Positions 972-26,063 are shown, counted from the first letter of the stretch. The stretch: DNA of 32,000 nt from Candidatus Thorarchaeota archaeon (GCA_048882505.1 JBHLRO010000014.1:60001-92000), one strand, 5' to 3'. Notes: generated from the sequence alone by a model not told the origin. Numbers and translations: made by a program.

Positions 972-1523
972 GTGCGAAGAAAAACTAGCATTCTAGTCTG
1001 TTTATTAAATTTAGTGTTGATAGCGAACGCTACGATTCAAGGTACCGTGTTTACCATCGATTCATACTCAATAAATCAAGTTTGGGAGATAATGCAGACA
1101 ACCGACGAATTTCTGATAATCGATGACAGGCCATATTCGGAATATGTCGAAGGGCATATCCCAACAGCTATCAGCATCGAGCTGAAGGAGACGGTCGATC
1201 CCACAGAAGTAGATACAATCAATGCTTACGGAAAGGAGTATAATATCCTTTATTGTGCCTGTCCAAATGGGGAGAATTCGGAGCATCATGCTGAAGAGCT
1301 CGTCAAGTTAGGCCTTGATTCTATCTCTTACATGCACGAGAGTTTTACTGATTGGGGATATCAAATCGTTACGGGTTCGGAACCAGGCGTATTGGTTTCC
1401 ACGACAATTCCCACCTCTACCCCCGATGGGGGATCGCCTCCACCACCGCTTTCGGATTTAATTTTAGTAAATCTGGTTTTGGTCATGGTCGCTGGACTCA
1501 TCATCTATTGGAAGAAGAAATGA
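972..1523 (+). CDS. Membrane-anchored rhodanese-like domain protein
   Basis: Signal peptide; IIDDRPYSEYVEGHIPTAISI rhodanese motif; loop LYCACPNG; C-terminal TM helix plus WKKK. Confidence 0.85.
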   Translation: MRRKTSILVCLLNLVLIANATIQGTVFTIDSYSINQVWEIMQTTDEFLIIDDRPYSEYVEGHIPTAISIELKETVDPTEVDTINAYGKEYNILYCACPNGENSEHHAEELVKLGLDSISYMHESFTDWGYQIVTGSEPGVLVSTTIPTSTPDGGSPPPPLSDLILVNLVLVMVAGLIIYWKKK

Positions 1524-1540
1524 ATCAAAACGGATAAAAA

Positions 1541-2692
1541 ATGCGAACTCTGGTAGTTAGACACAAAAACTGGTTTCTGTGGATCATCGGATTCGGAGTA
1601 ATGATTACCTGGATTGGATTTTCGGTTCTCATGGGCTGGATTCGAGTGGATCCTAGGGAATATTTCCAAATTCCCGAAAGATCGTTTTATGGACTGACTC
1701 ATCCCGTACTATTTGCTTTTGGATTCTGCATAATATTTGTGAGTTTATTCATTATATTTCCAGCTTTGGGATCAGAAAGTCTCAAATTCCTGAAAAAATT
1801 AGACGTCGTGTTCGTATTAACTTCCATACTGGGATTGGACATCCTGCTGTATGGGATTGCCAATTTCCACAGTGAATCCATCCCTCTGCTGATGGATCAT
1901 CATACATGGTTTGATTATTCCATTATAGGGATTTTCCTCTTCATCTTCGGATTTACACCCATGGTCTTCATCGTCCAGGATTTTAAAAACCACAAAATTC
2001 TCAGGTTCATCTTCGTTGGGTGTACAATCATTGGGTTTTTCTTCCTAGGAGTAAGTTGGATTGAGTATAGTTATCTATTTTATCAATGGGGGGTTCCTCG
2101 GGGAGCTTGGTTCTTCCATTTCATTATTGGATGCTTTTTATTATTTTTAGGGGGACTTCCCTTATTAGTTACTTATATGACCCATCATATGGGATTGCTT
2201 GATGGTCTGCGCCGAATATTTTTATTCTTAACCCTGCTAGGAACTCTGGTCTACCTCAGTCCCACTTTCGCATTCAACGGGATCGTTATCCCATTAACCA
2301 TCTTAAGACATTTTAGTTATTTCGAACTCTTAACGGCAGGCTATCTATTGATCGTGCTTGGGATTGTCCCTCTTGCTGTTTCTTACAAAAACTTCCCTCT
2401 CATTTACAGACTGAGGTATTGTTGGATAGGGTTTCTGGCACTCGGAGTTATTCAAATGCTCATATCGGCTGCCTTTGTTAACTTCGCAGGGTTTTTCATT
2501 GAGATCCCTCTTGGTATTTATAGTATAAGATCCCCTTACGGTCCAACTATTCAGGGAATGACTTGGGATGTGTTTTTTTACAATGGAGCCTTAGTCATGA
2601 CAATTGGGCTGATCTTCATTGCCTCTATCCTATTTTTCGAGATGGTAGATGATGGACGAGGGGAAGAAATGGATCCTTCCCCAGTTTCTTAA
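1541..2692 (+). CDS. Polytopic membrane protein with internal two-helix repeats
   Basis: 383 aa, about 10-12 hydrophobic segments; recurring (W/Y)-x5-6-G-x6-G-x2-P pattern. Confidence 0.85.
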   Translation: MRTLVVRHKNWFLWIIGFGVMITWIGFSVLMGWIRVDPREYFQIPERSFYGLTHPVLFAFGFCIIFVSLFIIFPALGSESLKFLKKLDVVFVLTSILGLDILLYGIANFHSESIPLLMDHHTWFDYSIIGIFLFIFGFTPMVFIVQDFKNHKILRFIFVGCTIIGFFFLGVSWIEYSYLFYQWGVPRGAWFFHFIIGCFLLFLGGLPLLVTYMTHHMGLLDGLRRIFLFLTLLGTLVYLSPTFAFNGIVIPLTILRHFSYFELLTAGYLLIVLGIVPLAVSYKNFPLIYRLRYCWIGFLALGVIQMLISAAFVNFAGFFIEIPLGIYSIRSPYGPTIQGMTWDVFFYNGALVMTIGLIFIASILFFEMVDDGRGEEMDPSPVS

Positions 2693-2776
2693 TCTCCTCC
2701 TCCTGCTTCTACTTTTATGGATAGAAGCTTATAGTACATTATATAACATATATGATATTTCAGGATTCCTAGACTA

Positions 2777-3487
2777 TCAAATATCCGAATTTGTGTTCAG
2801 AAGAAAGTGGGCAGGATTAAAGTAGTACCGATTCGCTTTCTTCTTGTATGGGTCTTTTTCAACCAAAATAAGATTTACCGCATTCATTTCGGAAAGACGA
2901 CGTCGAACGGTTTGAACATGAAGTTTCTTAGAGTTGTTATTATTTCCTAGTCTAACAAGACCATTCTCTAAGATTTTCAAGATCTTTTTTGACGTTATCC
3001 CGTTTTCATGGACTAAAATCTCAAGAATCTGATAACATAGAGGGTTCATGCCAATCGGGCATAGGGTCTTGTCAGTATCAAAATCAATTAGATTAAGAGC
3101 ATAACTGGGGTTTAATGTGTAAAGAATCTCATTCTGTTTGTATCCCCTCACATTAATGCCGAAATCTTCAGGAGAAATCTTCGATAAATTGATTTTAAGC
3201 AGTAATCCCTCAATCATGACTAGTCTGTCATTAATAATATTATAGAATGTTGTGTATCCATCTCGTTCATAGATATAGTATTTCAGAAAACTCTCGTGAA
3301 ATTCGGTGAGCGGAAAGAAGTGCCGCCCCTCCTTGGCCTTCAGCAGGAACAACTGGATGATGGCGATCTCTTTGTAGGACAAACGATGACATAGCGGTAA
3401 TAAGGAACATCCTTGGCAGGAACGGTTAGAAATCCAGGTTGAAAAGATCATAGGTAATTTAGAATTCTTCGTATCCGTTGCTATCAT
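2777..3487 (-). CDS. Winged-helix protein with N-terminal Cys motif
   Basis: CQGC..LPLCH motif; C-terminal wHTH (QILEIL..GITSKKIL..VQTVRRRLSEM..NLILV..RYY); GGAGG upstream of ATG. Confidence 0.75.
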   Translation of the reverse strand: MIATDTKNSKLPMIFSTWISNRSCQGCSLLPLCHRLSYKEIAIIQLFLLKAKEGRHFFPLTEFHESFLKYYIYERDGYTTFYNIINDRLVMIEGLLLKINLSKISPEDFGINVRGYKQNEILYTLNPSYALNLIDFDTDKTLCPIGMNPLCYQILEILVHENGITSKKILKILENGLVRLGNNNNSKKLHVQTVRRRLSEMNAVNLILVEKDPYKKKANRYYFNPAHFLLNTNSDI

Positions 3488-3721
3488 ACTACCCTCCTTC
3501 GATCCTGAGGATCGGATTCGATACCTACTGTTTGATCATATTCAGTGTTATTTCGCCCTTTAGTTTGGGTTGTAATCAACCTTCCATCTCCTTCTCATCT
3601 CTCTCAAGAACCCTCAAAGAATCAATGGTTAATGGTAAGACAATTTGGTTAGAGTTGTGGACAAATAGTATATGTAAAGTCCTATCTAGTACCCAGTTTG
3701 CTATCGGGTCTGTCGCTATCG

Positions 3722-4162
3722 TTAGGGACCCCCTTGGGAATTGTTTTCTAGCGTATATGGCCATTGAAGAATACTATCATTCATGTAGTAGACATTCTGC
3801 ATCCCGAGTCCGATCAGCTGCTCAGCGTACCAACGGGCTGATCCACCGCCGTAACAAGTACAGTATAGTACGTTCCTCGACCGATTGTATCCTTCCAGGA
3901 ACACCACGTCAGCAGCATCAACAGTCCCATTGAAATGAAGATTGATCGCGGTGGGCAGATGGGATTGGGTGTATAAGGCCGATGACCGAGTATCCACAAT
4001 CAACCAGTTCTGGTTCTGTTGGATACCAGCCCACACTTCATGCACGGTCAAATGGGGAACCACTATGGTTTGGTGTGGGAGAAACAGGGGTGCTACCAAG
4101 AGTCCCACAACACTTGCCACACTTCCTATGGCTAACACAGCAATAATCTTCACTTTGACCAT
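3722..4162 (-). CDS. Rhodanese-like domain protein with N-terminal membrane anchor
   Basis: LIVDTRSSALYTQSHLPTAINL; loop LYCTCYGGGS; paralog of 972..1523; TATA-like TATATAAAG upstream. Confidence 0.85.
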   Translation of the reverse strand: MVKVKIIAVLAIGSVASVVGLLVAPLFLPHQTIVVPHLTVHEVWAGIQQNQNWLIVDTRSSALYTQSHLPTAINLHFNGTVDAADVVFLEGYNRSRNVLYCTCYGGGSARWYAEQLIGLGMQNVYYMNDSILQWPYTLENNSQGGP

Positions 4163-4311
4163 CTTTCACACCTTGCCTTTAGGATATGGGGCAGAACTGT
4201 AAATCGTGGAATCACCCCTGATGGAAGACCGACCTTTATATATGCGGAAACGGCCACCAGATCTATCACAGTTCAAGCGGAAGTGTTCCGCTCTTATCCA
4301 TGGCGAAGTCC

Positions 4312-4623
4312 TCATCTATTAAATCTCCAAGGATGATTCATATTTGGTATTATCGGTCGAAATATCTCCTGTTGACGGATTATATTCCGACGAGTTAGCG
4401 GTACCCCGATCACTTGGTTGATAGTGGTTAAATAACCGTCTGGAAGGGTTCGTCTACAAATTTCCAAATAAATTTCAATGAGCGCGAGATAGGCGCCAAA
4501 CTGTTCTGGAGGAGTGATTAACACGAATCCATCCGTATCGTTGAGGAACCTCGTGAGGGATGACAGTAGTAGCTGGGGGAAAAACTCAATTAATCCCCCA
4601 GGAACATACCTACGTGGCCTCAT
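4312..4623 (-). CDS. Hypothetical protein (start may be 4665)
   Basis: ORF with GGAGG before the ATG at 4623; no family recognised. Confidence 0.55.
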   Translation of the reverse strand: MRPRRYVPGGLIEFFPQLLLSSLTRFLNDTDGFVLITPPEQFGAYLALIEIYLEICRRTLPDGYLTTINQVIGVPLTRRNIIRQQEIFRPIIPNMNHPWRFNR

Positions 4624-4783
4624 GACCCGATTCCTCCATTCATAGCTAACTGTAACTTGTGCCATCTTACCTGTAATAACCAGTAATACCAGTAATTAAA
4701 AGTATTCCCAATCATTGCTATCCATCGCTGATATATAGATGCAAAAACCCTGCCGACGCATTCCCTCAAAGGTATGGATCTGA

Positions 4784-5092
4784 ATGTCTGATGAATTACA
4801 GAGCGACCACTTCTTGGTTCTGTTGGCTTTGGTGCTTCGCCCCGAGGTGAGTCAGAAGCAGGAGATTGCCAGACTCGTACACCCGTATATTCGATCTCCA
4901 AAGACCGTGTCACTGAAACTGGCCCAGCTCGAAGATCGAGGATACGTAATTTCCACCCAGATTGGGCGGCGGGTGGTGTACAAGGTAAAACGAACGGGAC
5001 AGACCGCCTTAACTGCCTGGCGGAAATCTGACGTTGGGAAAGAGTTCGGGGGTTCTTGGGCGGAGCACATTCAGGAAAAGGAATTGGAATAG
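4784..5092 (+). CDS. MarR/ArsR-like winged-helix regulator
   Basis: QEIARL..SPKTVSLKLAQLEDRGYV..GRRVVYKV.RTG pattern. Confidence 0.8.
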   Translation: MSDELQSDHFLVLLALVLRPEVSQKQEIARLVHPYIRSPKTVSLKLAQLEDRGYVISTQIGRRVVYKVKRTGQTALTAWRKSDVGKEFGGSWAEHIQEKELE

Positions 5093-5130
5093 GGGTTTGG
5101 GGAAGACATTTTCTTAAATTTAATTTTAGA

Positions 5131-5451
5131 TTAAACCTCATGGGGAAGGGTCACCGTCTCTCCGTTTCTCTCGCGCAAATCCCAAGCAAAGCAAATGCGC
5201 AATTGGTGGGATGTGGGATCCTGGATGAAGTAACATTGGCATCCCGTGGTAGTGTTGACTAGACACAGATAGTGGCGGAGGAGGTGTTTCTGATTATCCT
5301 TGGAGAGGTGTAGTAATTCGGTGCTGAGAGTGAGGGATACGGTGGTTCCCGAACGTTCGATGGTTGAGAACATGTGCTTACTCAAAAACAGCAATTGGAA
5401 GATTCTGTCAATTTGAGTCGGTACCTCGGGTATCCACTGGTAGTCCCACAT
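5131..5451 (-). CDS. Hypothetical protein
   Basis: 106-aa ORF with a TATA-like TTATTTAAA about 26 nt upstream of the start. Confidence 0.6.
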   Translation of the reverse strand: MWDYQWIPEVPTQIDRIFQLLFLSKHMFSTIERSGTTVSLTLSTELLHLSKDNQKHLLRHYLCLVNTTTGCQCYFIQDPTSHQLRICFAWDLRERNGETVTLPHEV

Positions 5452-5725
5452 CGGAACCGTTAACGTAGGTCTGGGGTTTAAATAAGCATAAGTTAGTCAT
5501 TTCGGTCACTTTTTCGAAAAATCTGTCCATGTAGCGCTGTTGGGAAGCTCGAGGCGTGGTCTCCTCCCATTTGGAAAATCACTTCATTTTTTCCGATTTC
5601 GCTTTTTCATTACGCGAGGGCACGGTAATTACACTTCGGTTTTCGTAATCTACGAGGAGAGGCTGAATAAAGGCAGTGGTCTCGGCCAAGGTACTAGAAC
5701 GGAGTCTGATGCCCCTACCATCGCT

Positions 5726-7183
5726 TCATTCTTCTTCTTGAAGGTGATGGTATGTCTTTAGGAGGGAAATCCCCCACTTGAAATGGTCTCTCACCGTATT
5801 GATTTTCCAGTACAATTTCATGTTAGCCTCCCGTTGGCCCTCGAGGATACGATCCATGTTGCGGGCGAAGGGCTTAATCCACTTATTGGGTAATTTGAGA
5901 AATCCAAAGTAGGTATGAGTCGGCCTGGTCTTAGAAATGAAGACATCCACCTTAGGAAAAGTCAAAAAGTGGTCTAGCCAGGGGATTGAGCTATCTTCAG
6001 TCGATAGGTAAAAGTAAATGCTGAGATCCAGGCCAAAATTGAAGAATTGGCTGAGCCTCGTCGTTATTTGGTGTTTGGCGTACTCAGGCAATCTCTGCGA
6101 AATGGTACTTGTGGACACTCCTGTGGCCTGACTCAAATGAGTCAGATTCTCAAGATCCCCCATGGTACTCAAGAAATCAAGAATCTTCACATCCGCAGGA
6201 GTAAGTTTGAAGGATTGATGCTGTACAGCCAGTGGACAATTAAATCGTGGGGAGGGACTGGTGATCTTGACCTGAGGCTCGCCATAGATTAGGGAAGGTG
6301 GTATTTGCCACGGATCCTCACCTCCTACCAGGCCCGATAAATTCCAGTTTATAACCCTTTGATTCACAGGGTAGACCAAACTGTCGGGCAGTTGCTCCTG
6401 TATCGTGTGCAGGATTTGTGTTTCTTTGAACGGGATCTGTACAAGACTGAAGGTTCCAACTGACATGTTCGCGTTCATGAGCAAGACATCAAGAAACCTC
6501 TCGGGAAAACCACCCGTATGGACGATCAGAGAGGTCTCATATCCCAACTGTCCCATGTCCAGCACGTGTTGCACGGCAACCATATCTAGCAGTCTAAGCC
6601 TTTTAATTCGGCGAGAAATCGTCTTGATCGATCTTTTCTCAAGACCAATATAGTCTCTATATGGATAGAAATCCATGAATAGGTTGTTTGGATCCCGTTC
6701 AAGTTGGAGGTTAGCCCGAAGAAGGGCGATATCTATTTTGTCTAAAGGGACGATAAAATTGGTGAGGACGGGGAGAAGATGCTCAAAAATGACTTCTTTC
6801 CTCCCTGGAATCCTTTTAGTATATATACCTTGGAGAATTACATGAATGACGCTTTTGGGGTGACAGCAAACTTCGTAGGTGATGAGTTGCAATGGCATCA
6901 TGTACCCGCCTCTATCTTTCCAACGAAGATGAATAGAGGCGTGCGTTTTTAACCACGGTTCAACCAATCGCAGAGAGGGGTCATGTTTGAATTTTTCATA
7001 AAACGGAAGCACATCATCCACGAGGATGCGTCTTGAGATTCGGAGAACATCATCCAAGCTAGTTTCCTTGGCCAGGTCGTGGATTTTAATCCAGATTCGT
7101 AAGAAATGCTCAACATACGGTTCAAGCTTGTACTCCTGAGGGTTGTGGAGGACAGATTTAATCTGAGAACTGGGAAGTGTCAT
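5726..7183 (-). CDS. Tandem Lrp/AsnC-like double-HTH protein, paralog 1
   Basis: Two AsnC-like HTH starts (LDKIDIALL..; LTPADVKILDFL..), LDMGQLGY after HTH1, family motifs NWNL.GL.GGEDPW and HFLTFPKVDVF. Confidence 0.9.
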   Translation of the reverse strand: MTLPSSQIKSVLHNPQEYKLEPYVEHFLRIWIKIHDLAKETSLDDVLRISRRILVDDVLPFYEKFKHDPSLRLVEPWLKTHASIHLRWKDRGGYMMPLQLITYEVCCHPKSVIHVILQGIYTKRIPGRKEVIFEHLLPVLTNFIVPLDKIDIALLRANLQLERDPNNLFMDFYPYRDYIGLEKRSIKTISRRIKRLRLLDMVAVQHVLDMGQLGYETSLIVHTGGFPERFLDVLLMNANMSVGTFSLVQIPFKETQILHTIQEQLPDSLVYPVNQRVINWNLSGLVGGEDPWQIPPSLIYGEPQVKITSPSPRFNCPLAVQHQSFKLTPADVKILDFLSTMGDLENLTHLSQATGVSTSTISQRLPEYAKHQITTRLSQFFNFGLDLSIYFYLSTEDSSIPWLDHFLTFPKVDVFISKTRPTHTYFGFLKLPNKWIKPFARNMDRILEGQREANMKLYWKINTVRDHFKWGISLLKTYHHLQEEE

Positions 7184-7199
7184 GATTCACGAGGAAGAG

Positions 7200-7231
7200 G
7201 AAAAGGGTTTTATAAAGAGCTCTAGAACCAT
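7200..7231 (-). promoter_or_regulatory. Promoter of paralog 1 (TATA plus palindrome), duplicated at 8609..8640
   Basis: TTTATAAA at 7209-7216, 26 nt from the ATG; 28/32 nt identical to 8609..8640 at the same 17-nt offset from the start codon. Confidence 0.75.
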
Positions 7232-7270
7232 GGGATTATTTTATGCCCAAGAAATATCCGTGATGGATGG

Positions 7271-8437
7271 TCATACCTGGTCTGTGAGTATTCCTCGTAG
7301 TAGCATGCGCCGTTTGAGCACGTTTCGTCTGTGTTTCAATGATAATTGGAATGGTAAACGCGAGTTTCCTTTCGTCTCCTGGTATTGCTGCGCCAGAATG
7401 GCGTAGGCAAGGACTTCGAGATTGGCCTTTTTGATGGTTCTAAAGTACGGATGTCGCGCGAGCAGATCCACCATCGAATAGGCTCCAGTCTGAATTCTCT
7501 TTGTCTCACTCGTGGATAAAGGAAGACTAAAGTGTTTGCTCAGATGTCTGATCTGTGCCTTAAGACTCTTCACCTTCTGCGCCCGCTTCCTTTTCCACCC
7601 TACCTCCTTTTGAGCGGCGTTTTTTCTATCACTTGATGATCTCAGGAGATTGGACAAATGCCGGCGTACTGTGTGACGACTGGCTCCAAGATGATCCGCA
7701 ATCTCCTGCAAGGTCATTTGCGTGTAATTGGCCTCCAGGAAATCCCTATCCTCTTTTCGCCACTTCTTCCTCCGGCCCGACCGTTGTGGAATCGCCCCAT
7801 CCTCCTCCTGCGTCTCCCCTTTTTCCTCTTTCTGTGTGATCCTATGCAGGTCTTGCAATCGGGCTTGATAATATACGGCTTCTGATGAACGATCCAATTT
7901 CACCGCGATTTTCTCGATGGTGTCAGCATCGTTGCGATAGTTCATTTCCAAGTAGTTCAGGTCAGCGGAAGACCACCGCGGTTTTAAATCGCGGATTTTG
8001 AGGGCGAGTCTTTTCATTTTCTTATAGACTGACGTATCTGGACGATTGAGTGCCTTTGCCATCTCTGGGATACTCATGTGCTTACTCTTGTCTTTAAGAA
8101 AACGGATTTCCTCATCGGTCCATTCTTTCCGTAGGGATTTTCCTTCGGTCAATTGCAATTGCGTCAGCTTCGTTCGGATTGAGACATACGGGCGGTGAAG
8201 AGCTTTTGCAATTTCAGAACTGGTCATCTGTTGATAGTTTTCTCTTAGAAACTGGATTTCTCCGGGACTCCATGCTTTACCTTTTCGCCTCCTTTTCTCT
8301 GCGGCTAATCCAAGTCTCTGTAACTTTCTGGAAACGGCAGCTGAGGAACGGTTCAGGGCACTAGCTAGTTCGAAAATGGGCATTGCCCGGCTGTTTTCTT
8401 TTAGAAAAGCGACCTCGGACCGTGACCATGCTGTCAT
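7271..8437 (-). CDS. Protein with five Myb/SANT-like HTH repeats and a possible TFB/cyclin-like C-terminal domain
   Basis: Five W(S/T/R)xx(E/D)xx(F/Y)L..N/K...M...(E)IA..L.R repeats. The ATG at 8437 overlaps the mini-ORF stop (ATGA) and is preferred over the track start at 8482. Confidence 0.88.
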   Translation of the reverse strand: MTAWSRSEVAFLKENSRAMPIFELASALNRSSAAVSRKLQRLGLAAEKRRRKGKAWSPGEIQFLRENYQQMTSSEIAKALHRPYVSIRTKLTQLQLTEGKSLRKEWTDEEIRFLKDKSKHMSIPEMAKALNRPDTSVYKKMKRLALKIRDLKPRWSSADLNYLEMNYRNDADTIEKIAVKLDRSSEAVYYQARLQDLHRITQKEEKGETQEEDGAIPQRSGRRKKWRKEDRDFLEANYTQMTLQEIADHLGASRHTVRRHLSNLLRSSSDRKNAAQKEVGWKRKRAQKVKSLKAQIRHLSKHFSLPLSTSETKRIQTGAYSMVDLLARHPYFRTIKKANLEVLAYAILAQQYQETKGNSRLPFQLSLKHRRNVLKRRMLLRGILTDQV

Positions 8438-8592
8438 TCCAAATCGGGCCTCTGGTATGTCTTTTGGAGGCCAATGCCCCATTTGAAATGATCCCTGGCT
8501 GTGGTAATCTTCCAGTGAAACTTCATGTTGTCGAGCTTGTATTCTTGAGGTCTCTGGAATATTGATTCAATTTGAATTCTGGAAAGTGTCAT
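8434..8592 (-). CDS. 52-aa 'collapsed' paralog (N-terminus plus C-terminus only) of the double-HTH family
   Basis: MTLSRIQIESIFQRPQEYKLD-NMKFHWKITTARDHFKWGIGLQKTYQRPDLE matches residues 1-21 and 454-478 of paralog 1; same promoter; stop coupled to the next ATG. Confidence 0.75.
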   Translation of the reverse strand: MTLSRIQIESIFQRPQEYKLDNMKFHWKITTARDHFKWGIGLQKTYQRPDLE

Positions 8593-8608
8593 TGGTCAAC
8601 TGAAAATG

Positions 8609-8640
8609 GAAAATGATTTTATAAAGAGTTCTAGAATCAT
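8609..8640 (-). promoter_or_regulatory. Promoter of the mini-gene/Myb operon
   Basis: gaaaatgattttataaagagttctagaatcat, 28/32 identical to 7200..7231. Confidence 0.75.
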
Positions 8641-8962
8641 TAACATCCTATTCCTCTCATCAAAACAGAACACACCCAAAATCATGGTTAACCCCTCTTC
8701 GTCTTAAAGCGAGAATGTCCAAGGAGACGGGCAAAATTTTTACAGCCTGCTATCTCAGAGTGATAACTTGGCTCACCGTATCACAAGTCCCAGGACATAC
8801 CCCCAGCTGAACTTTAATCGATCGGTGGGGCTGCGGACTGGGAGGAGTTTCGCCCGTCACACCTAAAGGATCCTCCAACACAAGGGGATCACTGACTAGA
8901 TGATTTGAGGCGAAGATTAGCCCATATAGGAAAATTTGTGTGCCAAAAGCTTTTGGAAAACC

Positions 8963-9121
8963 CTAATCAGCCATGGGAGGATTCGGTCCAGAGCCATTAC
9001 CGCTGGCTGTGCCAACGGACAGGAAGAGTAAGACCAGCATTATTACCCAGGGTAATAGTTTCCAGAAAGCAATGCCTACATCGGGTGTTCTGTCTCGAAG
9101 TCTAAGTTTCTCTTTCATCAT
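8963..9121 (-). CDS. Short signal-peptide ORF (peptide A), 52 aa; start could be 9130 or 9118
   Basis: Basic N-terminus, hydrophobic helix, C-terminal GNGSGPNPPMAD; resembles the ORF at 21884..22009. Confidence 0.5.
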   Translation of the reverse strand: MMKEKLRLRDRTPDVGIAFWKLLPWVIMLVLLFLSVGTASGNGSGPNPPMAD

Positions 9122-9156
9122 TTTCACCATTTTCAGTCTACTAGTGCGTCGTAACA

Positions 9157-9202
9157 TATGCGGAGAGATTCTCTAGGTCTTTTATGCGGAGAAATTCTCT
9201 AG
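9157..9202. repeat. Tandem 20-bp direct repeat with an internal dyad (putative operator pair)
   Basis: tatgcggagagattctctag (9157-9176) and tatgcggagaaattctctag (9183-9202), 19/20 identical, core GAGA-N3-TCTC, between divergent genes. Confidence 0.8.
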
Positions 9203-9240
9203 CCGCAAGTACAGCAGGGATATGAAATAACAAAGTTTAA

Positions 9241-10716
9241 ATGTTTTGGAGATCTCCTCTAGTGTTAAGCATGTCTCCTTCCTCCCTTTTAACCGCATAC
9301 TTGGAAAATAACCGACAAAAACAGGCTGGAGACTCGTCTACTCAGTTTATGCAAGAATGTCTTCTGGTTTGGGATTACATCCATGAAAAAGCACCTGAAC
9401 TTTCGGTGTCCGATATCAAATCATTCTCACGATCGATCTATAAGACGTTGACGCTGCCGCTCTATGAGAAATTTTCCGCTCTAGATTTTTTGGAGAAACA
9501 GGAGGGATGGGTTAAAGAGTACGCCAGCTTGACGATCAATTGGGCTGACAGGGGTCGGATCATTTTCCCCCTCCGCTTGATTACTTATGAAGTGGTCAAC
9601 CACCACAAACGCATCTTTGAGTTTTTCTTGCAAAAACTGCGAACAGGGGAGATGGAGGCCACCGCCCAGAATTTATTTGAGTTCCTGTTTCCTAAATTGT
9701 TAAATATTCCCATCCCTCTGACCAATACGGATCTACTTATTCTCAAGGCTCTTCAACCGTTACAGGATCGAACTGTGGACTATTTAAAGGGCGTTCCAAA
9801 TGAAGAACTCGCTGACTATTCAGGCAAATCCTTTCGGAACATTGTTCGACGCGTAGAATCCCTACGTTTCTGCCAGATTCATGTTCCCATCCATTTCTTG
9901 GATCTCGCGCAGCTAGGATATGAAACCTTCCTATTGTCCCACGATAGTCCTATTCCTGCACAGCTTGCGGACTATACCCTGATGTCCACCGACCTTATGA
10001 TTAGTACTTTTTCCATTGTGCAGATCCCAATTAAAAATAAGAAAATCTTCGTGGAATTTCAAGACCGACTCCAGCCCACCATCTTTCAACCGATGGCGGA
10101 TCGGGCACTAAACTGGAATCTCACGGGATTACGAGCCGGAGACGACGGGTGGGAAGTCCCTCCGTCCTTCATCTATTGTGATCCCACCATAGATCTTACT
10201 GTACCATCGCCAGCGCTTGGTATGTCTGTATTACCGGAACTGGAGCGGTTTCGCTCGCTGACTGCCGCAGACATCAAAATACTGGAATTCTTGACCACAA
10301 TGGGGAGTTTTACCACGAAGAAAAGGTTAAGTGACGCGGTCAAGGTCTCAACCAAAGAGGTCACCCAGCGTGTAACGGAGTACCAGTCCGAACGTCTGCT
10401 CCAGAAAGTCTACCAGTTCTATAACATCGGACTGGATCTAACCGTCTTCTTCTTCATTGCCAGCCCTCAGGATGTTGGAATTTCGTGGCTGAATCATTTT
10501 CTGACCTTTCCGAAAATGGACGTTTTTTCCAACACAGAGCCACCTACCTCATTCTATTTTGGGCATCTCAAACTTCCGCCGAAATGGTATAAAGATTTTA
10601 CTCGAAAACTCAAACAGATCAAGCAGAAGTTTCCTACGGTCAAAATTTATTATTCAGTGGAACCACCTCTAATGGCTAAGTGGAACCTGTCCCTGAAACA
10701 GACCTATGTGTCATAA
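9241..10716 (+). CDS. Tandem Lrp/AsnC-like double-HTH protein, paralog 2 (most divergent; start may be 9271)
   Basis: LDLAQLGYETFLL, NWNLTGL, LTAADIKILEFL, HFLTFPKMDVF, YFGHLKLP motifs shared with the paralogs. Confidence 0.9.
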   Translation: MFWRSPLVLSMSPSSLLTAYLENNRQKQAGDSSTQFMQECLLVWDYIHEKAPELSVSDIKSFSRSIYKTLTLPLYEKFSALDFLEKQEGWVKEYASLTINWADRGRIIFPLRLITYEVVNHHKRIFEFFLQKLRTGEMEATAQNLFEFLFPKLLNIPIPLTNTDLLILKALQPLQDRTVDYLKGVPNEELADYSGKSFRNIVRRVESLRFCQIHVPIHFLDLAQLGYETFLLSHDSPIPAQLADYTLMSTDLMISTFSIVQIPIKNKKIFVEFQDRLQPTIFQPMADRALNWNLTGLRAGDDGWEVPPSFIYCDPTIDLTVPSPALGMSVLPELERFRSLTAADIKILEFLTTMGSFTTKKRLSDAVKVSTKEVTQRVTEYQSERLLQKVYQFYNIGLDLTVFFFIASPQDVGISWLNHFLTFPKMDVFSNTEPPTSFYFGHLKLPPKWYKDFTRKLKQIKQKFPTVKIYYSVEPPLMAKWNLSLKQTYVS

Positions 10717-12006: not shown

Positions 12007-12053
12007 ATGGTGTGTGTACCCTTATGGTATATCATAGAACGAAAAGTTTTTCG

Positions 12054-12491
12054 ATGGTAGAATCCTTGTTTCCCGTCCCCGATACCCCTACCGAAACTGT
12101 GAATTGTGATCTGCTGATCGTGGAGGATAACGTGGATCTGCAAGAATATTATCACATTCTCTTTGGCATGACCCCGTGGAACATTGTCGCGCTCCTTGCC
12201 GATGGACTGGAAGCGATCAGCTATTACAAGGATCTCTACCCCAAACCCTCGGTCATTCTCTTAGATATCGACCTGCCAGGCTGCTCAGGGCTTCAGGTCG
12301 CTGAACACATCCTGCAAGCCCACCCCGCCCAGAAAATTGTCTTTGTGAGCGGGGTGCGTCGCGATCTCGTCATCCCTACGGCCCTCCAGGGTATCCCGTG
12401 GATTGACAAACCTTTCCGGATAGATGATTTGCTTGACACCCTTGAGACATTACGCGGTCAAGAGACTCCCGAACCTCCAAGGGATGGGTAG
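12054..12491 (+). CDS. Stand-alone CheY-like response regulator receiver (start may be 12012)
   Basis: LLIVED, ILLDIDLPGCSG (phospho-acceptor Asp), FVSG and KPF are all present. Confidence 0.92.
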   Translation: MVESLFPVPDTPTETVNCDLLIVEDNVDLQEYYHILFGMTPWNIVALLADGLEAISYYKDLYPKPSVILLDIDLPGCSGLQVAEHILQAHPAQKIVFVSGVRRDLVIPTALQGIPWIDKPFRIDDLLDTLETLRGQETPEPPRDG

Positions 12492-12639
12492 GTGGTCCGG
12501 GGGGATACCCCGCCTGTAGTGATCGACGGTCATAGTGATATCCCAGTAGAATTTCATGTTGCAGAAGAGTGACCAGGGAGGGGGGATCCGTCAGGATGAT
12601 CCCTCCTGAGGATAGGTGGTCGAGAGCGGAATACCCCAA
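12485..12639 (-). pseudogene. Degenerate collapsed copy of the double-HTH family
   Basis: GGIILTDPPSLVTLL (matches the paralog 3 N-terminus GGIVLTDLPSLATLL) joined with a frameshift to NMKFYWDITMTVDHYRRGIP, then TTYP in another frame (matches the family C-terminus). Confidence 0.75.
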
Positions 12640-14096
12640 TTCGCCCGATCAACTGGCGTATAGATCTTCCAGTAGAATCTCATATCGGCATCTCGCTGTG
12701 CCTCAAGGATGCGATCCATGTTGCGGGCGAAGGGTTTAATCCATTTGTTTGGAAGTTTGAGATGTCCGAAATAGACTTGAGAGGCCCCTTCGTTGTGAGA
12801 GAAGACATCTGCTTTGGGAAAAGTCAGGAAGTGATCCATCCACGAGATAGACCCCCCCTCTATGGAGAGATAGAAGAATATGGTCAGATCCAGGCCCACT
12901 TTGGCAGGATTGCCTACTCTTACAACCAGGTGGCTCTCTACCATTTCCTTAAGTCCCGTCGATATTCGGGTAACGGACACTCCAATCGCCTTACTTAGGG
13001 CACTTACCGACTGAAAAGATCCTTTAATACTGTAAAAGTCAAGCACCTTGATATCTGCCGGTTTAAGGGGAAAGGGAGAAAATACAGGGGATAGCGAAAA
13101 GTCTACATTCGGCGTGGGAGCGATGAGATCGACTTCAGGTTCGCCATACAAGAGGGACGGAGGGATCTGCCAGGGATCCTCACCCCCCATCAGACCAGTC
13201 AGGTTCCAGTTAACTAGACGGCGATCCATCGAAAAATTGAGCTTGGTATCCGTCAACGATCGTATTGAGGCTAAGATCTTCGGTTGGGAATAAGGGATTT
13301 GCAGGAGACTGAAGGTTCCCAACTGCATCGTGGATGAGAGTAACAAATAATCCCGATATTCTGCGGGAAAGCCGTCTGTATGGAATAACAGGGTGGTTTC
13401 GTACCCGAGCTGCCCCATGTCTAGGGCAAGCATATCCTGAAGCACACCTACCTCATCTAATCGTCTCAACCGACGCATGACCGTTTTTTTGGAGGCCTCA
13501 ACATGGGGGAGATAATCGGCCTTGGAGAATTCGCGGAATGGGTTTTTTGCCCTTGTTTGCAGGAGGGTCCGTGTCTTCAGGAGCGCTACATCCAACGGGT
13601 CCAGGGGCACTATGAAATTTCCCAACACAGGCAGGAGCGTTTCCCAAAGGGCTCGCCTTGTGCCCTTGATCCCGCCACTCCGCAATCCTTGTAAGTAGAA
13701 GTTGAGGAGATTGTCCTTGTGATAACATATCTCATAGGCGAGAAATCTCATTGGGAAGAGATAACTTCCATGTCCCTCCCACTTTATGGTAATAGAGGCG
13801 TATCGCTTTTCCCAAGGTTCGACGCGCTCGAGTGAGGGATCCGGGGAATATTTTTGGTAGAACGCGAGAACATGAGAGTGGAAAATGCGTCGGGAGATAG
13901 GGTACAGGTCATCTAATGTGGCCTTCTTCGCCTCCTCATGGATAATGACCCAGATAGACAGGAAATCGGCCACGAACGGCTCGATGAAGTGTTCCTCAGA
14001 TCTCCCGAGGACACTGTCCAGGAGAGTGGCCAGGGAGGGGAGATCCGTTAAGACAATCCCTCCTGTGAAAAGGTTTCGGACAATGAGAGACTCCAC
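12591..14096 (-). CDS. Tandem Lrp/AsnC-like double-HTH protein, paralog 3
   Basis: Same family motifs; the GTG start overlaps paralog 4 by 49 nt (exact start uncertain). Confidence 0.9.
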   Translation of the reverse strand: MESLIVRNLFTGGIVLTDLPSLATLLDSVLGRSEEHFIEPFVADFLSIWVIIHEEAKKATLDDLYPISRRIFHSHVLAFYQKYSPDPSLERVEPWEKRYASITIKWEGHGSYLFPMRFLAYEICYHKDNLLNFYLQGLRSGGIKGTRRALWETLLPVLGNFIVPLDPLDVALLKTRTLLQTRAKNPFREFSKADYLPHVEASKKTVMRRLRRLDEVGVLQDMLALDMGQLGYETTLLFHTDGFPAEYRDYLLLSSTMQLGTFSLLQIPYSQPKILASIRSLTDTKLNFSMDRRLVNWNLTGLMGGEDPWQIPPSLLYGEPEVDLIAPTPNVDFSLSPVFSPFPLKPADIKVLDFYSIKGSFQSVSALSKAIGVSVTRISTGLKEMVESHLVVRVGNPAKVGLDLTIFFYLSIEGGSISWMDHFLTFPKADVFSHNEGASQVYFGHLKLPNKWIKPFARNMDRILEAQRDADMRFYWKIYTPVDRANWGIPLSTTYPQEGSS

Positions 14097-15538
14097 TTGA
14101 AATGATCCACTGGTGAGATTAGTTGCCAGTAAAACTTCATGTCTGCTTGCCGCTGCTCGTTCACAATGACAGCCAGATTACGGGCAAATGGTTTAATCCA
14201 TTTGAGGGGTAACTTGAGATAGCCAAAGTAGGCGGAAGTAGATGCCTGCTCGTGGATGAAAAGATCCACCTTGGGGAACGCTAAAAAGTGGTCTACCCAG
14301 GGGATAGAGTCCCCCTTGATGGATAAGAAGAAGTAGCACGAAATATCGAGTCCAATGCTAAAGAACTGGGTCATTCGAATGATCAGATCTTGCTGTGAGT
14401 ACCTTTTCAGGGCGGCGGAGAGATGGGGTACGGATACGTCAATGATTTGACTAAATTCCGTGAGCGAGGCAGACCCGCCCTCACTACTGATAAAATCCAA
14501 AATCCTGATATCTGCGGGAGTTAATGGTATGGGATCAAATTCTGGAGGTAAAGACAAGTCTAACCGAGGAGTAGGGGTAATTAAGTTGATTTGCGGATCG
14601 TTATACACCAGGGAGGGAGCAACCTGCCACGGGTCTTCGCCCCCGATGAAGCCCGTCAAATTCCAGTTGCTAATTCGGCGCAGCATGGGATATGAGACAA
14701 GAGACTCCAACTGATCTTGTAGTTGGTGTAACGTACTGGTCTTCTGAAACGGAATTTGCACCAGACTGAAGATTCCCAGTTGCATACGACTGGACATAAG
14801 TAAATAAGGGCGAAACTCCTCGGGAAAATCATTGGTATGAAAAAGGAGGAATGTTTCATACCCGAGCTGCCCCATATCAAGGAAGTAAAGGACTCCCATG
14901 ATCTGAAGCAGATCCAGCTTGGCCCATCTTCGTGTGATCGTTTTTTGCGAGGTGCGGACAAATGTGCCGATCTCGGTTTTTGAAAAGTCTCCGAAGAGTT
15001 TTCCCCCATTGTGTTCTAACCAGAGAATACTCTTCAATATGTCAATATCGACTGGGTCCAGGGGGACTACAAAGTTGGTTAAGGTGGGAAGGAGAAAGTT
15101 AAAGAGTGCGTCCTTTGTGCCTTTCATCTCGTTGGTCCGTAGCTTCTGCAAGTAGAGCCAAAGAAGCTTCTTCTGGTGATAAAAATACTCATACAACAAT
15201 AAATGAAGTGGAAGGTAATAAAGTCCTCGCTTGTTCCAATTGATCAAAATTGAAGCGTAACGCTTTTCCGTGGCGGGAACACGCTTGAGAACAGGATCAC
15301 CGGCATATTTGTGGTAGAACGGGAGAACCTGTTCATTAAGGATTTTCCGACACAGTGGAAGGAGATCGTCAAACGCAATATTTTTCGCTTGCTGTTGGAT
15401 AGAGGCCCAGATGGCAAGGAAATCCGCGACAAAGGGATCGATCTGGTGTTTACCCTTATTGGTCAAAGCGACATTCAATAACTTCGAGAGAGCGGATTTT
15501 CCTGTCATCATGCCACTTCCAAAAGCGATTTGGGACAA
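14048..15538 (-). CDS. Tandem Lrp/AsnC-like double-HTH protein, paralog 4 (start may be ATG 15511)
   Basis: LDPVDIDIL..SQKTITRRW..LDMGQLGY; LTPADIRILDF; HFLAFPKVD. Confidence 0.9.
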   Translation of the reverse strand: MSQIAFGSGMMTGKSALSKLLNVALTNKGKHQIDPFVADFLAIWASIQQQAKNIAFDDLLPLCRKILNEQVLPFYHKYAGDPVLKRVPATEKRYASILINWNKRGLYYLPLHLLLYEYFYHQKKLLWLYLQKLRTNEMKGTKDALFNFLLPTLTNFVVPLDPVDIDILKSILWLEHNGGKLFGDFSKTEIGTFVRTSQKTITRRWAKLDLLQIMGVLYFLDMGQLGYETFLLFHTNDFPEEFRPYLLMSSRMQLGIFSLVQIPFQKTSTLHQLQDQLESLVSYPMLRRISNWNLTGFIGGEDPWQVAPSLVYNDPQINLITPTPRLDLSLPPEFDPIPLTPADIRILDFISSEGGSASLTEFSQIIDVSVPHLSAALKRYSQQDLIIRMTQFFSIGLDISCYFFLSIKGDSIPWVDHFLAFPKVDLFIHEQASTSAYFGYLKLPLKWIKPFARNLAVIVNEQRQADMKFYWQLISPVDHFKWSLSLSETFSQEGLS

Positions 15539-24580: not shown

Positions 24581-25390
24581 TTATGTAAGATCCCCTGGGA
24601 ACCGTCGGCCCCTTCCCAACGCCGCCCGCCCGATTTGGAGCCGGAGCTGGTGGGGATCCTCGCCTAATCGGGCCGCCAGTACTTGGTAATGCACTGCTGG
24701 GTGGTGAGGGAGGGGAAGCCGCTTATCCATCTCATACCTATGGATCACGCGCCACAAGCCGGAATTAGAAGTCTCGAACATCTTTGTCAGCAGGATCGTG
24801 GGGAAAGTCGGATAGAGTTCCATCAACGCCCATAGCCGAACTCCGCCGAAGGCCCACCGTTCGGACTCGTAGCCATGGAGGGTCATGGGGCGATAGTTGA
24901 GGCGGAACGCCGCTTTTTCTAACATGTCCACGAGGACAGGGTCGTCCCGATCCACATACATCCCCTTCACATAACGGATGAACACCACTCGCCAGTCCTT
25001 GGTGGTCAACGGGGTGTACCCCATCACCCTGAGCTGTTGATAGACGGAATTGTACTTCCGCTGGAGGATTTGGGCCAGTTCGACTACCAAGAACTTGTCA
25101 TGGTTCGCGTGCAGGAATTTCTTCTCCTTGTCTGTCCAGCGTTGCCGCGTATACTGCCATTGCCAGTAGTCCCCGAATTCGTCCTTGACATACCCAATGC
25201 AATAGTCCCGTTGAATCCCCAATTGGATCGCTTTTCTCCGTACTGCCCCAGGGGACATATTCACATGGGCCGCAACGGCAGAATACGACATATGTGCCAC
25301 GTTGTCCTCTAAATAGCGGACTTTGGTGGGTGTCCACTTCCGTTTGCGTTTGGGTCGTTTCGGTCGAGTTTTCTGCATTAGTTCCGCCAT
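24581..25390 (-). CDS. Protein with two Myb/SANT-like repeats
   Basis: KWTPTKVRYLEDN..AVRRKAIQLGI and RWTDKEKKFLHAN..SVYQQLRVMG; ATG at 25390. Confidence 0.8.
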   Translation of the reverse strand: MAELMQKTRPKRPKRKRKWTPTKVRYLEDNVAHMSYSAVAAHVNMSPGAVRRKAIQLGIQRDYCIGYVKDEFGDYWQWQYTRQRWTDKEKKFLHANHDKFLVVELAQILQRKYNSVYQQLRVMGYTPLTTKDWRVVFIRYVKGMYVDRDDPVLVDMLEKAAFRLNYRPMTLHGYESERWAFGGVRLWALMELYPTFPTILLTKMFETSNSGLWRVIHRYEMDKRLPLPHHPAVHYQVLAARLGEDPHQLRLQIGRAALGRGRRFPGDLT

Positions 25391-25466
25391 CCTGCCACGC
25401 TCTGTAGCACTTCGATGTCGATATGGCCCACGACCTTTATATAATCGGAAACGAATGGAGAGCAAA

Positions 25467-26063
25467 ATGACACCCACCCCCTTTTCTGAGGAGCTCGAAA
25501 GAATCCTGGCTCATGCTTGGTGTCACCATGTCCGCCGTGATTATCGACTAAACAGGTTGTGGGGCGGTGAACGGGCATTACAAGTATCCTTGGGAATGGG
25601 ATTAAGGCAATGGTTAGATCCCTACCCCGAGATTCGGGTGTGGTTCGAAGCCACTCATCCGTATCGTAAGCAGGGCAAAGATTCCACAAAGATCGTGGAT
25701 CTCATCATTGTACGGTTATCCCCAGAACATGCCAAACAGGGAGACCATGTGTATGATGAAATGGCGGATATCCAGTATGATGACTTACTGATCTGTGAAT
25801 TAAAGTACAGTAGTTCGAAAACAAGGTCAATTGATACCGACCTCGCTTTTCTGGAACAATCCCAAGTACAAACATCCGATGTGGTTCAAGTATTTGGGTG
25901 GATTCCCTATACCGACGAGAAAACGCGCGCCCAAGAGAAAATCGATCTGATTGTGGCGAAGACCGCTGCTTTCCCGTTAAGGTTCATGCTGGGGAGACCA
26001 ACCAGTCCGTTTCGATGGTCATATTATGGCAATGGAGAAGAGATGTATTTCTCCCAAGACTAG
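25467..26063 (+). CDS. PD-(D/E)XK restriction-endonuclease-like protein (start may be 25455)
   Basis: ERALQVSL, IVDLIIV, ICELKY; TTTATATA about 25 nt upstream. Confidence 0.7.
   Translation: MTPTPFSEELERILAHAWCHHVRRDYRLNRLWGGERALQVSLGMGLRQWLDPYPEIRVWFEATHPYRKQGKDSTKIVDLIIVRLSPEHAKQGDHVYDEMADIQYDDLLICELKYSSSKTRSIDTDLAFLEQSQVQTSDVVQVFGWIPYTDEKTRAQEKIDLIVAKTAAFPLRFMLGRPTSPFRWSYYGNGEEMYFSQD

Follow-up and report, generated by a model that had tools for sequence, protein, structure and literature searches.

Within the window, a stretch of 32,000 nucleotides corresponding to positions 60001-92000 of contig C14, two very short copies of a family of long archaeal proteins take up the family sequence again at the same codon after most of the gene body has dropped out. 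The question raised by this locus is whether two events with one common boundary reveal a mechanism or selection, as the original prediction had reasoned, or whether the boundary coincides for ordinary reasons. Our analysis points to the latter. We put at roughly two in three the probability that the second short copy, mini 2, is the dead remnant of a third tandem unit which was lost in the ordinary birth-and-death decay of a paralog cluster, and that it shares its restart point with the first short copy, mini 1, by chance. The features discussed are collected in Table 1.

Four full-length members of the family, whose proteins have about 480-500 amino acids, are present in the window. Their pairwise identity is 37-49%, the value for paralogs 4 and 3 being 49%. 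For paralog 4 the database protein P0003 starts at MMTGK. The same genome contains further copies on contigs C13 and C20 and weaker ones on contigs C1, C5, and C6. In a set of 5.8 billion proteins all relatives are about 480 amino acids long and come from Heimdallarchaeota/Hodarchaeales bins; most of them are without a name, and two bear the JGI name "DNA-binding Lrp family transcriptional regulator". In a genome library the family was present in all 21 genomes of the genus to which the window belongs, with 1-12 matches each, and it was absent from both genomes of the sister family. By the distribution of its sequence matches the family is confined to one Heimdall/Hodarchaeales-type genus. A literature search on this protein family returned nothing relevant. 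Another genome of the same genus (G005, contigs C234, C126, and C97) displays an independent expansion of the family with 12 matches, five of them on one contig, and one of its copies is split by a frameshift (C234:12547-13967).

At the level of sequence profiles a winged helix-turn-helix was not recognised in the full-length paralogs: all Pfam matches to helix-turn-helix families stayed below the curated cut-offs, the best being MarR_2 with 22.3 bits on paralog 4 (cut-off 27), with further matches of 13-17 bits to HTH_24, HTH_AsnC-type, and MarR families. Paralog 1 was modelled with AlphaFold2 on the basis of 25 relatives (pLDDT 87.6, pTM 0.86). When this model was compared with solved structures by Foldseek, the top match was NirDL (4czc; E = 1.5e-7 over 368 columns), and many Lrp/AsnC/FFRP chains were retrieved with E values from 2e-3 to 1e-1 and probabilities of 0.96-1.00. 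The model has the fold of the Lrp/AsnC (FFRP) proteins, a winged helix-turn-helix and then a RAM domain (beta-alpha-beta-beta-alpha-beta). Judged from these matches, the predicted architecture of the paralogs is an N-terminal helical domain followed by two Lrp/AsnC-like modules.

Table 1. Family members, remnants and neighbouring features. Positions without a contig name are counted from the first letter of the window; model positions refer to the family model.
Feature	Position	Strand	Description
Paralog 1	5726..7183	-	485 aa; closest full-length relative of mini 1; protein modelled
Gene with five Myb/SANT-like repeats	7271..8437	-	downstream of mini 1; repeat pattern read from translation
Mini 1	8592..8434	-	intact 52-codon ORF; paralog 1-like codons 1-21 fused in frame to paralog 1-like codons 453-485
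Promoter-like stretch upstream of mini 1	8609..8640	-	TTCTAGA.CTCTTTATAAAA; from alignment; also present upstream of paralog 1 (7200..7231)
Paralog 2	9241..10716	+	491 aa; most divergent copy in the window
Response regulator receiver gene	12012..12491	+	Pfam PF00072, E = 1.3e-12, residues 35-144 of 159; convergent with the array
35-codon open frame	12450..12557	-	from internal ATG; in ORF list
Mini 2, tail	12458..12500	-	TTYPSLGGSGVS then stop; after second frame slip; homologous to TTYPQEGSS-stop of paralog 3 plus unit junction
Mini 2, right half	12501..12560	-	NMKFYWDITMTVDHYRRGIP; family C-terminal block from the N/D-M-K position on (AAC ATG AAA TTC TAC TGG ...)
Mini 2, junction base C	12561..12561	-	right half one base out of frame relative to left half; direct reading
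Mini 2, left half	12562..12639	-	TTG at 12639 homologous in position to the GTG start of paralog 3
GGIILTDPPSLVTLL in left half of mini 2	12606..12562	-	frame opened by TTG at 12639; equals residues 12-26 of paralog 3
Paralog 3	12591..14096	-	501 aa; second array unit; GTG start within the last 16 codons of paralog 4, other frame
Paralog 4	14048..15538	-	496 aa as listed, 487 aa from the ATG ATG ACA start; first unit of the tandem array
Remnant	G007:C24:7648-7523		..SLLTDKYDIKFYHKIFTSIDQFKWGISLADTYHQPK; 56.9 bits; no ATG/GTG/TTG; model positions 449-479
Remnant	G007:C24:4160-4086		model positions 466-479
Remnant	G013:C14:4314-4192		SRKIDRIRREFGIKCYYELFTPIGHFIYSISLKETYN; model positions 443-478; 80 nt downstream of a full-length gene belonging to another subtype
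Remnants	metagenome contig L011		two successive fragments; model positions 377-478 and 429-478
Remnant	L012/L013		11-codon tail; model positions ~468-478

Paralog 4, paralog 3, and mini 2 follow each other head-to-tail in this order, and paralog 4 is the only unit of the array with an upstream region of its own. An alignment of the unit junctions shows that the end-to-start junction between paralogs 4 and 3 corresponds base for base to that between paralog 3 and mini 2, through ..CAGGAGGGAT..TCYTRACGGATCYCCCCTCCCTGGYCACTCTYCTG and up to ..ACTCTYCTG, where the two split and paralog 3 continues with GACAGTGTC.. and mini 2 with CAACATGAAATTC.. The GTG start of paralog 3 sits in a different frame in the K-W-S codons of paralog 4, and the TTG of mini 2 is found at the same spot in the N-W-G codons of paralog 3. 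Likewise, the first 49 nt of mini 2 overlap the end of paralog 3 in the same way as paralog 3 overlaps paralog 4. Since the unit junctions align and the start positions match, the array is a chain of units. The units after the first have neither a promoter nor an ATG of their own; each of them uses as its start a GTG or TTG situated within the final 16 codons of its predecessor.

Mini 2 occupies positions 12639..12458 of the minus strand, across and just beyond the stop codon of paralog 3. Reading this strand we obtained exactly what had been described before, namely a left half, an extra C, the AAC ATG block, a slip, and TTYP. The latter is encoded by ACC ACC TAC CCA at 12496..12485, and the tail closes with TGA at 12460..12458; in an alignment this tail shares ACCACCTAYCC and GGAGG with the unit junction of paralog 3. 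About 443 codons are absent, and the frame is disturbed by the one-base offset at 12561 and by the second slip before TTYP. The N part is identical to paralog 3 at 12 of 15 residues; the other paralogs attain at most 5 of 15, and the highest value among 3000 shuffles of the 201-nt stretch was 8 of 15. Scored against a 26-position model of the family C-terminal block, the C part obtains 17.1 bits and the 3000 shuffles 10.2 bits at best, and its E value is 0.035 when the whole 4.3-Mb genome is translated in six frames (0.0225 in a second search). Both halves thus exceed all shuffles, the C-terminal similarity is significant, and mini 2 can indeed be regarded as a collapsed copy of the family. 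In the genome-wide scan with the C-block model only six full-length genes, mini 1, and mini 2 rise above noise, and a third mini was not found in the six frames of this genome.

Mini 2 has the marks of a gene remnant, its homology being significant, its frame disrupted, and the unit not conserved in relatives. What is left are only the equivalents of residues 12-26 and 470-497 of paralog 3, with neither a helix-turn-helix nor a complete RAM domain; judged by the model of paralog 1, the last strand and the tail are all that is retained of the RAM-like domain. The alternative open frame of 35 codons, to which attention had been drawn before, is indeed contained in the ORF list and is probably fortuitous, because the conserved tail is lost from it at the frame slip. 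On the other strand the response regulator gene has its last ~14 codons (12450-12491) opposite the tail of mini 2, and with its receiver domain ending at residue 144 of 159 there may be a rearrangement edge at 12450-12491.

As to the parent of mini 2, the original prediction had argued from residues which differ from the adjacent paralog 3 that the copy derives from another paralog. This claim is not supported. The GIP and the tail ACCACCTAYCC (TTYP) of mini 2 are common to paralog 3 only. The D-H-Y-R of mini 2 is near the D-H-F-K usual in the family, where paralog 3 has D-R-A-N instead; D-H-[FY]-[KR] is the common family state, and it is paralog 3 itself that has lost it. From the tail common to paralog 3 only, together with this retained common state, we infer that the parent of mini 2 was a sister of paralog 3, although the first 20 residues of the C part match paralog 1 (10/20), paralog 3 (10/20), and mini 1 (11/20) alike and identity over this stretch does not discriminate between parents.

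Mini 1 consists of MTLSRIQIESIFQRPQEYKLD fused in frame to NMKFHWKITTARDHFKWGIGLQKTYQRPDLE. In the scan of its own genome the C block of mini 1 reaches 47.8 bits (E = 9e-12). Mini 1 is identical to paralog 1 at 12 of 21 residues in the N part and at 15 of 20 residues in the C part, and the two share an unusual Arg in ..RDHFKW. The stretches 7200-7231 and 8609-8640 are near-identical and contain a TTCTAGA-centred near-palindrome abutting a TTTATAAAA box; these promoter-like stretches of paralog 1 and mini 1 are better conserved than the coding sequence after them. Between mini 1 and paralog 1 we calculated a pN of 0.17 and a pS of 0.61, the synonymous sites being near saturation. Taken at the level of substitutions, this comparison shows long purifying selection on the mini 1 lineage, with the reservation that pN/pS cannot separate the time before the deletion from the time after it.

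The TGA of mini 1 overlaps the ATG (8437..8435) of the next gene as ATGA. This gene with Myb/SANT-like repeats likely starts at the ATG at 8437, where the first repeat begins; the listed ORF 7271..8482 begins 15 codons before 8437, inside the C block of mini 1. A second protein with the W-x-x-x-E..FL.. Myb/SANT-like repeat pattern is encoded at 24581-25477 on the minus strand. We also considered an orphan piece in G007 as an ortholog of mini 1. This assignment was rejected, as the orphan resembles its own neighbour (GISLADTYH type) and has neither a start codon nor an N part.

At their junctions, 4 kb apart, mini 1 reads AAG CTC GAC AAC ATG AAG TTT CAC TGG and mini 2 reads CTT CTG C AAC ATG AAA TTC TAC TGG. 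Direct reading therefore bears out that both restart at C AAC ATG AAR TT, within 0-1 nt and at position 454 of the family model. It also bears out that the left halves follow different paralogs and end 13 codons apart, the left half of mini 1 at codon 21 of paralog 1 (equivalent to codon 39 of paralog 3) and that of mini 2 at codon 26 of paralog 3. With left halves and flanks from two paralog lineages, those of paralog 1 and paralog 3, minis 1 and 2 are to be read as the records of two separate events and not of one inherited junction.

In the model of paralog 1 the last helix comprises residues 433-449 and the last strand residues 455-461, so that N453/M454 lie in the connecting loop. The restart point thus falls in the loop that leads to the last beta-strand of the second RAM-like domain, and at the same time it is the first residue of the best-conserved block of the family. 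As such a loop is a tolerable fusion point and as homology is recognisable only from there on, edges would be noticed at this place for ordinary reasons. Most likely the shared restart is a matter of chance helped by this structural and detection bias; it is real but not shown to exceed coincidence.

We also looked at the DNA and RNA around the junctions. The duplexes formed by the boundary flanks in paralogs 1 and 3 were unremarkable in comparison with 2000 random site pairs and amounted to -18.3 kcal for paralog 1 (12% of random pairs as low) and to -24.8 kcal for paralog 3 (3.7%). BHB geometry was not found at these flanks, and the left boundaries are 13 codons apart. An origin at a BHB-like structure or at the RNA level was rejected on these grounds. 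A microhomology-mediated deletion was rejected as well, the longest shared words being 4 nt and none of them lying at the junction. By eye, the p3-type sequence CTG GACA GT and the p4-type sequence GCA GACA TG share GACA; this candidate was dropped, the predicted product CTG GAC ATG not being seen. The original junction is not recoverable, the sequences being too diverged (pS 0.6-0.7).

For a census of remnants we searched 24 genomes of the order with mini 1 and the C-block profile and scanned the fetched loci in six frames with the full-length profile. Such a census detects only pieces holding the C block, and the edges, taken from local profile alignments, may be a few codons off. Six further remnants were found with left edges at family-model positions 377, 429, 443, 449, 466, and 468. 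None of these six has an N part and none starts at 454. A mini joining an N part to a C part was found neither in the 23 other genomes of the order nor in the 11 metagenome loci. Among the proteins of 28-91 aa in the set of 5.8 billion there was no short annotated relative of mini 1 (52 aa), and residues 430-485 of paralog 1 matched only one contig-end fragment among proteins of less than 266 aa. With eight edges distributed over 92 codons, the chance that at least two of them coincide is 27%; for two edges specified beforehand it is 1.1%, given edges uniform over the last 92 codons.

The junctions are scattered elsewhere, and by the refuting condition set in the original prediction the inference of a dedicated mechanism fails. 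The expected clustering of right boundaries at the codon shared by the minis was not observed, and with scattered edges, no BHB, no microhomology at the junction, and no short annotated relatives, a mechanism or selection behind the shared boundary is not supported. The other remnants hold the 3' end only, and minis 1 and 2, which also hold a 5' piece, are of a distinct kind; the scatter of 3'-only remnants may be the wrong null for these two.

The loci retrieved in the census provided some additional observations. In G007 (locus L001, contig C24) a 55-nt direct repeat with 91% identity is present at 4083-4137 and 7520-7574. The repeat represents the last ~18 codons of the family C-terminal block (DQFKWGISLADTYH..) and flanks a 1023-aa gene (4172..7243) with a hydrophobic N-terminal stretch. 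The arrangement resembles an insertion or a duplication whose ends fall in the C block, and no integrase-like ORF was noticed in the 3.4 kb between the repeats. The loci L007 (G013:C14, 4100-4360), L012 (5570-5740), and L016 (2440-2660) have a 3' flank which is >90% identical in all three. In L016 this flank is preceded by a full-length KCYY-type paralog. In G013 and L012 a KFYYKIYTP-type paralog comes first, and between it and the flank there are only the final 37 and 11 codons, respectively, of the KCYY type; L012 and L016 are from the same metagenome. The pattern points to a gene replacement or to the deletion of a tandem partner, the stumps left behind being of unequal length. In L011 (6466-6953) a full-length copy (7596..9392) has two C-terminal fragments in succession just upstream of it, the first of about 100 residues and the second of about 50. 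In L007 (3957-4010, plus strand) a full-length tandem pair (995..2500 and 2455..3930) is followed by a third unit of which only the start (..LKGNLEKFHIEPFVLDFL) is present, and this N-terminal stump in G013 is the counterpart of the left half of mini 2.

Several other explanations have to be weighed against the decay of a third unit. The start of the C block could be a preferred DNA breakpoint, perhaps as the sole stretch alike enough for ectopic pairing of the diverged paralogs, and rearrangements of different sorts would then stop within or beside it. Every remnant found retains the 3' end with its edge in the last ~100 codons, the G007 repeat of the block tail brackets a gene, the KCYY-type 3' ends of G013 and L012 follow a different paralog with the same flank, and two edges in the genome of the window coincide. 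We nevertheless consider such a hot spot unlikely: the edges extend over 92 codons and do not mark one site, the search used the C block and could find only remnants bearing it, the N and C sides of the minis are not homologous and pairing cannot explain these junctions, and microhomology amounts to at most 4 nt and is off the junction. Alternatively, a mini-protein composed of the N-terminal helix and the last RAM-like strand with its tail might have been useful and might have been made twice, mini 1 being alive and mini 2, once in frame, having decayed. It may have served as a translated leader coupled to the next gene or as a strand-donating cap at the oligomer interface, hindering the assembly of the full-length regulators, and mini 2 would once have read CTG GAC AAC ATG and later have lost GA. 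Such a role would fit with the intact frame of mini 1, its conserved family residues and promoter, its ATGA overlap with the next gene, and its pN of 0.17 against a pS of 0.61, as well as with the junction in a loop of the modelled protein; with two bases restored, mini 2 would have L-D-N-M, the same junction residues as mini 1. We still regard it as improbable, because a low pN/pS can predate the deletion, no short relative exists among 5.8 billion proteins, the remnants in other genomes lack both a start codon and an N part, the frame of mini 2 is broken in two places, and one helix and one strand do not make a domain.

Quite improbable, too, is a small duplication by which an unequal exchange would have copied ~160 nt across the unit junction (C block, junction, and the first 26 codons of the next unit) and so placed a mini between two full units, the downstream unit being lost later. 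It predicts the p3-like tail that the mini has, and a junction-like sequence is found again after the mini 2 tail (GGAGG..TCTCTTGACCG vs GGAGGG..TCCTGACGG), but it requires the extra loss of a whole unit, no further family sequence was traced beyond 12458, and mini 1, with a promoter and not a full-length gene upstream of it, would be left unexplained. It is very improbable that both minis descend from one ancestral mini which arose by a single deletion and was then copied, mini 2 losing 12-13 more codons beside the junction while its left side was converted toward paralog 3. C AAC ATG AAR TT is identical in both, and the C part of mini 2 is marginally nearest to mini 1 (11/20 vs 10/20). Mini 1, however, has the promoter of paralog 1 and the MTL start, mini 2 has a p3-type junction, a GGI.LTD extension, and a TTYP tail, and a second deletion ending exactly at the first junction would itself be a coincidence. 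Finally, collapsed repeats in the assembly, the start of one copy having been joined to the end of another, deserve hardly any weight. The genome is a draft of 83 contigs, but protein identity between the paralogs is only ~48%. Mini 2 departs from each full copy at 16-37% of bases, with many differences on either side of the junction, and the longest stretch that it has exactly in common with paralog 3, about 11 nt, is too short to mislead an assembler; by this divergence of the sequences an assembly collapse was rejected.

We therefore prefer to explain mini 2 by the decay of the third tandem unit, a once full-length unit 3 which would have been cut by a deletion, the shared edge having no mechanistic meaning. 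Unit 3 would have begun as a sister of paralog 3, and an illegitimate (non-homologous) deletion would have removed about 1.3 kb of it between codons ~27 and ~469. The one-base frame break at the junction could have been acquired later or could have been present from the deletion on. Unit 3 would then have gained the second slip, close to the tail, and several replacements of conserved residues. Mini 1 would go back to a separate in-frame deletion in a p1-type copy, with promoter and start kept and the stop overlapping the start of the next gene. A genome with an intact third unit was not found, and we infer the state before the deletion. Nothing suggests that mini 2 now encodes anything. The family turns over, with 1-12 matches per genome, and its fragments are common and have scattered edges.

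To sum up, the result mainly records the turnover of a lineage-specific regulator family in Heimdall/Hodarchaeales-type archaea, with units chained by overlapping starts, losses by large deletions, and 3' stumps lasting in several genomes. An annotation should label 12450..12639 as a remnant and should not treat the 35-codon or the 87-codon ORF in it as a gene. That both minis restart at one codon would be important only if edges piled up there in a wider census or if mini 1 turned out to be expressed and active; if that were so, archaea would provide a rare example of a mini-protein derived from a regulator on two occasions.

The full-length paralogs share with Lrp/AsnC and NirDL/AhbAB proteins two tandem modules, each consisting of a winged helix and a RAM-type alpha/beta domain. 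Unlike these proteins they carry an extra N-terminal helical domain of ~140 residues. The likeness to the siroheme decarboxylase NirDL/AhbAB is one of predicted fold alone, and haem or d1 synthesis genes are absent from the ORF list of the window. Compared with Lrp/AsnC, mini 2 has only 15 + ~24 terminal residues, with no helix-turn-helix and no RAM domain. MicroProteins, small proteins which descend from transcription factors and retain just an interaction surface, offer another comparison, and mini 1 may be likened to them as a short regulator-derived ORF with a strand of an oligomerisation-type domain. In contrast to MicroProteins there is no conservation outside this genome, the piece is a fragment and not a whole domain, and mini 2 is frame-broken; being out of frame, reduced to one domain strand and devoid of relatives, mini 2 does not qualify as a MicroProtein.

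Orphan 3' gene ends are known from Rhs/CdiA loci. G013 and L012 are comparable in that the 3' end of the other type, with its flank, comes after a full-length paralog, and mini 2 likewise lies directly after a full copy. Unlike in Rhs/CdiA loci, the piece kept is the conserved end and not a variable toxic tip with an immunity gene, and no evidence of cassette exchange was found in the window. Set against the usual deletion pseudogenes, mini 2 differs in two respects: both termini are kept, and the right edge coincides with that of an intact remnant of another lineage within the same 10 kb. In all other respects compared, mini 2 is like the pseudogenes which arise by internal deletion in tandem clusters. 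It has no counterpart in related genomes, its residues changed at an accelerated rate, its frame is broken, and its body is lost nearly totally, while its homology is to the neighbouring gene.
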